IMG/VR virus record: IMGVR_UViG_2917413769_000004
Length of the DNA stretch: 34,875 nt
Source: a virus
Taxonomy: Duplodnaviria; Heunggongvirae; Uroviricota; Caudoviricetes
Reading direction: 5' to 3' (one strand)
Under the pieces are notes generated by a model. The model had not been told where the DNA came from, ran no database searches, and saw only the letters and a program-made list of their open reading frames with translations. Of this stretch, positions 10,267-10,362 are shown in pieces. A program made the position numbers and the translations under genes. Every line of letters begins with the position of its first letter. Within the stretch, counting starts at the first letter, position 1.

Positions 10267-10318
10267 GATCGTGCTCCTGTGTAAGTTCAGAGCAGTATGT
10301 CCGGTGGTGGGACTGGCA

Positions 10319-10340
10319 GATATTAAAGGGGATTAAGAAG
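10319..10340 (-). promoter_or_regulatory. Candidate late-promoter motif, copy B
   Basis: Plus strand gatattaaaggggattaagaag; 53 nt upstream of chaperone start; immediately downstream (minus-strand sense) of a terminator-like hairpin. Confidence 0.45.
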
Positions 10341-10362
10341 AAAGGGGCCGAAGCCCCTTTGG
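10341..10362 (-). terminator. Intrinsic terminator-like hairpin inside the tail gene cluster
   Basis: Minus-strand reading: stem AAAGGGGC / GCCCCTTT with UUCG loop followed by tttcttcttaat. Confidence 0.5.

Follow-up and report, generated by a model that had tools for sequence, protein, structure and literature searches.

The window, that is the whole stretch of 34,875 nucleotides analysed here (IMG/VR record IMGVR_UViG_2917413769_000004), is on the basis of its sequence a BcepMu-like transposable (Mu-like) prophage. Its DNA is 94% identical to Klebsiella phage KP12 and 86% identical to Escherichia phage PhiKM (megablast, annotation transfer), and it has the sheath and tube genes in common with Burkholderia phage BcepMu at the DNA level. 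The late genes occupy the minus strand from position 23850 to the left end and include holin, lysis, terminase, portal, protease, capsid, P2-like sheath, tube, tape measure, baseplate and fibres. The early genes lie on the plus strand from ~26900 and comprise the repressor region, transposase A and B, GemA and Mor. The top sigma-70 consensus match of the window, TTGACA-16-TACAAT (26851-26878), is located at the head of this early operon. A close relative of the prophage is found in the E. coli AREA_C483 chromosome (1983-2777) inside the host gene nrfA, which is annotated as truncated, and this insertion fits random transpositional integration.

Motif copies upstream of the late gene blocks

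A preliminary description of this DNA had pointed to a 22-bp motif in three copies, each upstream of a late gene block. Copy B reads GATATTAAAGGGGATTAAGAAG and is present at 10319-10340 on the plus strand; the motif itself had been recognized correctly, while its start had been set at 10316, 3 nt too early. Copy A (4503-4524) differs from copy B at 2 of 22 positions, in agreement with the identity of 20/22 given before, and copy C was recovered at 23902-23922 by a degenerate pattern, its left half-site being irregular (TTATAAC). Neither motif pattern had a match in 100 dinucleotide-preserving shuffles. The first minus-strand start codon follows the motif at a distance of 31 nt for copy A (gpW ATG 4471), 52 nt for copy B (chaperone ATG 10266) and 51 nt for copy C (holin ATG 23850), the identities of gpW (baseplate wedge), tail assembly chaperone and holin being derived from Pfam and PHROGs. 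The placement ahead of late gene blocks thus stands for all three copies, but a fourth, intergenic copy (D, 16540-16518, minus strand) had been missed; it lies upstream of the head protease gene (15367-16464). The putative activator sites, numbered on a 23-nt weight matrix (see below), and two further candidates are as follows:

4501-4523, minus strand: putative activator site of promoter A, 23 nt, TTCTTAAACGCCTTTAATATCGG; gpW, baseplate and fibre genes; score 23.0, second best
10317-10339, minus strand: putative activator site of promoter B, TTCTTAATCCCCTTTAATATCTG; chaperone and tape measure; score 22.5, third best
16518-16540, minus strand: putative activator site of promoter D, TTTCTAAAGCAGATTAAAAGCGC; Mu I-like head protease/scaffold gene; score 26.7, best of the window
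23900-23922, minus strand: putative activator site of promoter C, CTTATAACGCGCTTTAAAATCCG; holin, lysis, terminase and portal; score 19.6
194-216, minus strand: candidate extra site E, GCTTTAAAGTGCGTTAATAGCGG; inside the DNA-invertase gene; score 19.7
24840-24862, plus strand: weak candidate site G; upstream of the dam methylase gene (25036-25806); score 11.2

Conservation of the motif in related prophages

A motif search across related prophages had been suggested as a check. One genome per species was scanned with a sheath alignment, which resulted in 80 loci spanning Enterobacterales, Burkholderiales, Neisseriales, Pseudomonas and Lysobacter, and the regions upstream of the gpW, chaperone, protease and holin homologues were taken. 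These are described by a 23-nt weight matrix with the consensus TyTTTAAAsccsWTTAAwAKCCC. A site with a score >8 is present in 61/64 distinct upstream regions of gpW, 62/77 of the chaperone, 57/60 of the protease and 14/14 of the holin, so that the same four operon-leading genes are preceded by sites across the family. For the window itself, the matrix was rebuilt only from relatives with <70% protein identity and both strands were scanned (69,706 positions). Sites D, A, B, E and C, in this order, are the top five matches, and none of 200 dinucleotide shuffles of the window reached a score of 19.5 with the rebuilt matrix. A plus-strand match at 7739-7761 (18.0) was rejected as a chance match, being antisense in the tape measure gene and without the invariant TAA/TTAA cores.

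Among complete relatives scanned with the same matrix, Ralstonia YO107_2 and Pseudomonas Komp_PAO1_1 each contain exactly four syntenic sites, which precede the gpW, chaperone, protease and holin/lysis genes. These four recur in PhiKM, together with a fifth, dam-proximal one. In BcepMu and phiE255 the protease, holin and gpW sites are above the threshold and the chaperone site is below it; the BcepMu motif precedes gp21 (holin), gp32 (protease), gp41 (chaperone) and gp49 (gpW). Nothing comparable was found by matrix scans of Mu (maximum 13.2), P2 (15.7) and JBD25 (10.4). Pseudomonas phage JBD25 carries a Mor with 40% identity and gives no match scoring 12 or higher; its box specificity presumably differs. 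No published description of the motif was found in papers on BcepMu promoters, RdgB/pnlA, KS10 and Pseudomonas Mu-like genomes; a mention in the BcepMu paper in J Mol Biol 2004 is possible.

Predicted anatomy of the late promoters

For a positional profile, 92 non-redundant promoters (<80% identity) were aligned on the motif alone and without gaps. The site has the consensus TyTTTAAAS-NN-SWTTAAwAKC, in which the TAA and TTA half-site cores are invariant and 9 bp apart. A stretch of ~17 nt, from +13 to +30 past the dyad centre, is without conservation. It is followed by C or G at +31, A at +32 (97%), A or C at +35, T at +36 (93%) and G at +37, and 86/92 promoters have both A(+32) and T(+36). 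The A at the second and the T at the sixth position are the critical bases of a sigma-70 -10 hexamer. We therefore predict that the conserved hexamer SAnnMT, 31-36 nt past the dyad centre, is the -10. Within the window, this second block stands ~21 nt downstream of the 22-mer on the coding strand and reads AATACT (A), CATACT (B) and GATGCT (C); copy D is followed by CAGACT at the same distance.

In the 92 promoters, 31.5 nt separate the centre of the dyad TAAAS-NN-SWTTA from the conserved A of the hexamer downstream. Given the spacing of 31-36 nt and assuming the usual 7 nt from hexamer to start, the dyad would be centred at ~-42.5 and overlap the -35 region. Neither a TTGACA-like nor a TGn (extended -10) signal is apparent in the profile of the 92 promoters, and a sigma-70 consensus scan called none of the four promoters of the window. 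Most likely, the 22-mer is thus a dyad-symmetric activator site and not the -10. The resulting assignments, with predicted starts ~33 nt downstream of TAATAT, are:

4520-4507, minus strand: dyad of promoter A, TTAAA-CGCC-TTTAA
4478-4483, minus strand: predicted -10 of promoter A, AATACT, in register with the conserved SAnnMT (31-36 nt past the dyad centre)
4471, minus strand: predicted +1 of promoter A, the A of the gpW ATG (gpW gene 4124-4471; no Shine-Dalgarno sequence)
10294-10299, minus strand: predicted -10 of promoter B, CATACT; predicted +1 ~10287
16495-16500, minus strand: predicted -10 of promoter D, CAGACT; predicted +1 ~16488
23877-23882, minus strand: predicted -10 of promoter C, GATGCT; predicted +1 ~23870

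A dRNA-seq data set of B. cenocepacia J2315 (PMC4603805, Table S3) lists no starts at the predicted BcepMu late promoters (chr3 coordinate = 609955 minus BcepMu coordinate). Since the prophage was uninduced and silent, late starts are missing from this atlas and the data are uninformative on this point.

Mor as candidate activator

The window encodes one member of the Mor/C family:

34055-34474, plus strand: gene of the Mor/C-family activator, which closes the early operon and immediately follows the GemA homologue; probable ATG at 34085

The protein matches Pfam PF08765 over its full length (E = 1.2e-42) and aligns to Mu Mor (1RR7, E = 1.6e-8) and Mu C (9L0X, E = 6.3e-8) through the linker and the helix-turn-helix. 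Mor had already been named as the sole protein of this family in the window and as the natural candidate for an activator, and a single homologue is indeed what was found; BcepMu likewise has one Mor/C gene. Since the box of the window is unlike the Mor or C boxes of Mu, the assignment of Mor relies on analogy within the family and on elimination, and on these grounds we infer that Mor binds at the 22-mer sites and that the late promoters depend on it.

We consider it likely that this BcepMu-like prophage has four activator-dependent sigma-70 late promoters with Mor at the dyad, which form a two-tier cascade. Mor would be made at the end of the early operon, bind to the dyad and recruit RNA polymerase to late promoters that each consist of an imperfect dyad and a weak -10 (SAnnMT) and have no -35. 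In Mu, polymerase is recruited in this manner by Mor at Pm and by C at Plys, PI, PP and Pmom. Promoter C would then serve the holin, lysis and head genes, promoter D the protease, capsid, sheath and tube genes, promoter B the chaperone, tape measure and hub genes, and promoter A the gpW, baseplate and fibre genes. Promoter A would give rise to a leaderless gpW mRNA, and promoter B would adjoin an intrinsic terminator that ends the preceding unit. Early expression would thus be followed directly by late expression without a separate middle operon. The earlier suggestion of an activator-dependent late promoter therefore probably holds for the kind of promoter, one that lacks a -35 and heads a late unit, but not for its anatomy.

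The same architecture could also be used by another protein that binds the dyad in place of Mor, such as the IclR-like winged-helix protein (27144-27449), GemA, the product of an unannotated ORF or a conserved host factor. Several small phage proteins without annotated function are conserved in the family, and the box does not resemble those of Mu. We nevertheless regard another binder as improbable, since Mor and C are the only known activators that combine a dyad at ~-43 with a design lacking the -35, and since mor is located at the end of the early operon beside gemA, as in Mu. An Ogr/Delta-type or other late-activator family was not found among the scanned ORFs. For a host factor to play this part, it must be conserved all the way from Lysobacter and Pseudomonas to the Enterobacterales and yet remain silent in lysogens.

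A four-promoter late switch of the Mor type is of the expected kind, and this core result is what a Mu specialist would expect. What it offers is a testable regulon map, with a 23-nt matrix, four to six promoters per genome, starts predicted within ~2 nt and one activator, for a family of transposable prophages that is widespread in Escherichia, Klebsiella, Pectobacterium, Photorhabdus, Burkholderia, Pseudomonas, Chromobacterium and others. The map may be of use for better operon annotation and for the design of Mor-inducible expression cassettes, and the family would provide a natural specificity variant for comparison with the new cryo-EM structures of Mor and C.

TAATAT, the terminator and the possibility of a repeat

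The preliminary description had read TAATAT within the motif as the -10, which would place the start ~7 nt downstream of it and leave the activator to act through the CTTCTTAA part or at another place. In copies A and B, TAATAT does match a -10 well, and no -35 is present, both of which are compatible with such a reading. However, the position reads TAAAAG in 32/92 promoters and TAATAT in only 20/92; in 49/92 the hexamer ends in G, which is incompatible with a -10, and copies C and D of the window read TAAAAT and TAAAAG. TAATAT is therefore not the -10 but belongs to the right half-site together with its flank. Moreover, the other hexamer, 21 nt downstream, is conserved at a fixed spacing, and the gpW ATG is fixed 6-7 nt from this downstream hexamer in 31/31 lineages, which a start 26 nt further upstream leaves unexplained. 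Taken together, we hold a -10 within the motif to be very unlikely and keep to the downstream hexamer.

The terminator before copy B, which had been described as a GGGGC-UUCG-GCCCC hairpin, is well in line with the comparative data:

10341-10360, minus strand: intrinsic-terminator-like hairpin AAAGGGGC-TTCG-GCCCCTTT with tail CTTCTTAATC; the T-rich tail enters the promoter B site

Among the terminator-like structures of window positions 1-20000 this hairpin (10360-10341) is at the top of the list, tied with a plus-strand site (8 pairs, 5 of them G-C). A covarying counterpart of this hairpin, with its end 1-11 nt ahead of the site, is present in 11/15 assessable chaperone promoters, compared to 2/31 gpW, 2/16 protease and 0/10 holin promoters. 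The stems covary (GGGGC/GCCCC, GGCCCAC/GTGGGCC, GACCCGC/GCGGGTC), mostly with a TTCG loop and followed by a T tail. The hairpin is thus predicted to be a conserved Rho-independent terminator.

It had also been considered that the motif might turn out to be part of a longer dispersed repeat. The similarity between A and B does reach 49 nt (4476-4524 and 10292-10340, 71% identity in a repeat search), but this stretch is the entire promoter, from the -10 hexamer to the motif. A dispersed repeat unrelated to transcription initiation, be it a recombination, packaging, transposase or nucleoid-protein site or merely a series of terminator tails, could account for an AT-rich, palindromic motif of which copy B overlaps a terminator tail and the high-scoring copy E lies inside a coding region, but is very unlikely, since throughout the family the sites precede the same four operon-leading genes, invariably on the coding strand, and keep a rigid spacing to a -10-like hexamer, the terminators accompany only the chaperone class, and an Rfam scan of the whole window matched no family.

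Comparison with Mu and P2

In the Mu Pm promoter the Mor dyad extends from -51 to -36 with its centre at -43.5, and a -10 is present without a -35 (PMC4287176). Four late promoters of Mu carry a related dyad that is bound by C (PMC4287176; PMC4461284; bioRxiv 10.1101/2025.05.02.651988). The late promoters of the window resemble Pm in having a -10 and no -35 and in the imperfect dyad over the -35 region (-43.5 in Mu, ~-42.5 in the window for the predicted start). In both phages the Mor-family activator is encoded at the end of the early operon beside gemA. Furthermore, an activator site is overlapped by a terminator in both, by the predicted one before copy B in the window and by an early terminator in Mu (terminator 9179-9200, promoter 9163-9233 of the Mu record). 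The boxes differ in composition, however, with G+C-rich arms around TTAA in Pm and A+T-rich TAAA/TTTA arms around a G+C-rich centre in the window, where the distance to the -10 is also 1 bp shorter. Mor drives only one promoter in Mu, that of the gene for C, whereas the single homologue of the window apparently serves all late promoters and neither a separate C gene nor a middle operon is present.

The C-dependent late promoters of Mu (Plys, PI, PP, Pmom) are also four in number and have equivalent map positions (lysis/head, protease I, tail/baseplate). Their weak -10 hexamers (TAGACT, CAAACT, TATCCT, TAAGAT) include two, TAGACT and CAAACT, that are similar to CAGACT and CATACT of the window, and A+T-rich half-sites surround a G+C-rich spacer as in the window (TTAT-N6-ATAA in Mu, dyad centre ~-43.5). 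In the Mu record, the centre of the C box precedes the first base of the -10 by 31.5 nt and the conserved A by 32.5 nt at the four late promoters; the corresponding distances of 30.5 and 31.5 nt in the window family are one base shorter. The recognition sequences differ, as no matrix match of at least 14 is present in Mu and the Mu C-box core CCATAACCCC is unrelated to the box of the window family. This indicates a different specificity within the same Mor/C architecture. Two apparent similarities were discarded. The sequence GTAAAGCCGGTTAA of Mu Pm resembles the BcepMu box, but its register is shifted by ~6 bp against the published Mor dyad, so that we take the resemblance to be coincidental, and the TCCCGCAC element of promoters A and C and of Mu Plys and PI has different positions relative to the -10 and is not positionally homologous.

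Unlike in Mu, tail promoters precede the chaperone and gpW genes, because the tail module is P2-like. With P2 the window shares homologous tail genes, and its baseplate operon is predicted to be leaderless, like that of P2. The P2 activator, on the other hand, is the zinc-finger protein Ogr with a dyad centre near -55, and the P2 promoter precedes V and not W; no Ogr homologue was found among the window ORFs scanned.

Predicted leaderless gpW mRNA and fold-back pairing

The gpW ATG follows the hexamer by 6-7 nt, corresponding to a predicted leader of 0-1 nt, in 31/31 non-redundant promoters, and a Shine-Dalgarno sequence is absent. The protease gene has the same arrangement in 12 betaproteobacterial-type relatives and a leader of 16-27 nt in enterobacterial and Pseudomonas relatives. 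The gpW mRNA and, in those 12 relatives, the protease mRNA are thus predicted to be leaderless. In the P2 record the transcript of the V operon (baseplate) likewise begins, by annotation, with the first base of V, and a leaderless P2 gene is cited in PMC4633059.

In promoters with leaders (n=47), the segment from ~-16 to +3 is complementary to the ribosome-binding region of its own gene. The inverted repeats that link the region before +1 to the ribosome-binding site covary across the family (23855-23876, 16469-16497 and 10272-10294, minus strand). The pairings in the window are:

4488-4483 and 4478-4473, minus strand: inverted repeat GGGGCA/TGCCCC of promoter A, with the hexamer in loop and arms
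10294-10290 and 10276-10272, minus strand: TGCTC pairing with GAGCA at promoter B, the latter (3' arm) holding the Shine-Dalgarno sequence GGAG
16497-16491 and 16475-16469, minus strand: CTGTCCC pairing with GGGACAG at promoter D, the latter holding the ribosome-binding site
23876-23871 and 23860-23855, minus strand: GTCTCC (-6 to -1) pairing with GGAGAC (Shine-Dalgarno) at promoter C

The mean duplex energy of the native combinations is -12.0 kcal/mol, compared to -7.9 kcal/mol for mismatched ones, and 0/20,000 permutations reached the native mean (n=47). The predicted probability of an unpaired Shine-Dalgarno sequence is 0.22 in read-through RNA versus 0.44 in RNA beginning at +1 (p = 1.4e-6); with swapped 5' extensions it is 0.34 compared to the native 0.22 (p = 2e-4). 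At leaderless promoters it is the two sequences flanking the hexamer that pair (-10.0 versus -6.0 kcal/mol, 0/20,000 permutations, n=43), and masking of the AUG is not significant in this class (p = 0.15).

These values would be compatible with a translational gate built into the late promoters of the BcepMu family, by which only transcripts initiated at the Mor promoters could be translated and read-through transcripts would be masked. We put this forward tentatively and rather doubt than expect that it will hold. The gate would consist of an anti-Shine-Dalgarno segment just upstream of +1 and, in leaderless units, of arms that pair across the -10 up to the AUG; the masked read-through could originate from host genes, given the random insertion of the phage, or from upstream phage units. 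A precedent is the fold-back protection of IS10 against read-through translation (Davis, Simons and Kleckner 1985, as cited in PMC13181058). In IS10/Tn10, too, sequence before the start pairs with the ribosome-binding site and only read-through transcripts are masked. There the fold-back sequesters the translation start of the transposase, whereas for the window it concerns phage late promoters, is deduced statistically and has a modest effect. Mu Plys (GCCATCA/TGATGGC) and Mu PI (CTGCTCA/TGAGCAG) contain similar inverted repeats, so the gating principle could extend to Mu. If the gate and the family-wide leaderless baseplate operon are real, late protein synthesis would depend on the choice of promoter in addition to transcription, and a confirmation of these two predictions, the leaderless operon of gpW and a masking of ribosome-binding sites that is coupled to the promoter, would be of wider interest.

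Additional sites and elements

KP12 and an E. coli prophage contain site E with the identical sequence; its -10-like hexamer GAAACT is 1 nt further away than the family spacing. As the invertase gene is the last phage gene of the E. coli prophage, ~80 nt from the disrupted nrfA, a transcript from site E would leave the prophage end. The invertase gene adjoins a region (350-1617) with fibre C-terminus and assembly-chaperone genes in opposed orientations, which looks like an invertible host-range cassette of the Mu G-segment type.

Site G is weak in the window, but its PhiKM equivalent (30862-30840) is strong (20.3), has a -10 of CATCAT and lies directly upstream of the PhiKM dam gene. The position before a DNA methylase gene is like that of Mu Pmom, and the site upstream of dam may, by this analogy, be the counterpart of Pmom as late promoter of a DNA-modification gene. 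A hairpin with a 13-bp stem is located between site G and dam in the window.

A conserved palindrome, CTTTATAAAG(GC)TTTAC, is contained in a hairpin at ~16598-16634 (minus strand) of the window and at 18725-18760 of BcepMu. It is placed in the intergenic region that separates the protease gene from the Mu G-like gene, 50-90 nt ahead of promoter D, at the map position of the strong gyrase site of Mu, which has a different sequence. The palindrome is found in most lineages, from Enterobacterales to Burkholderia and Pseudomonas.
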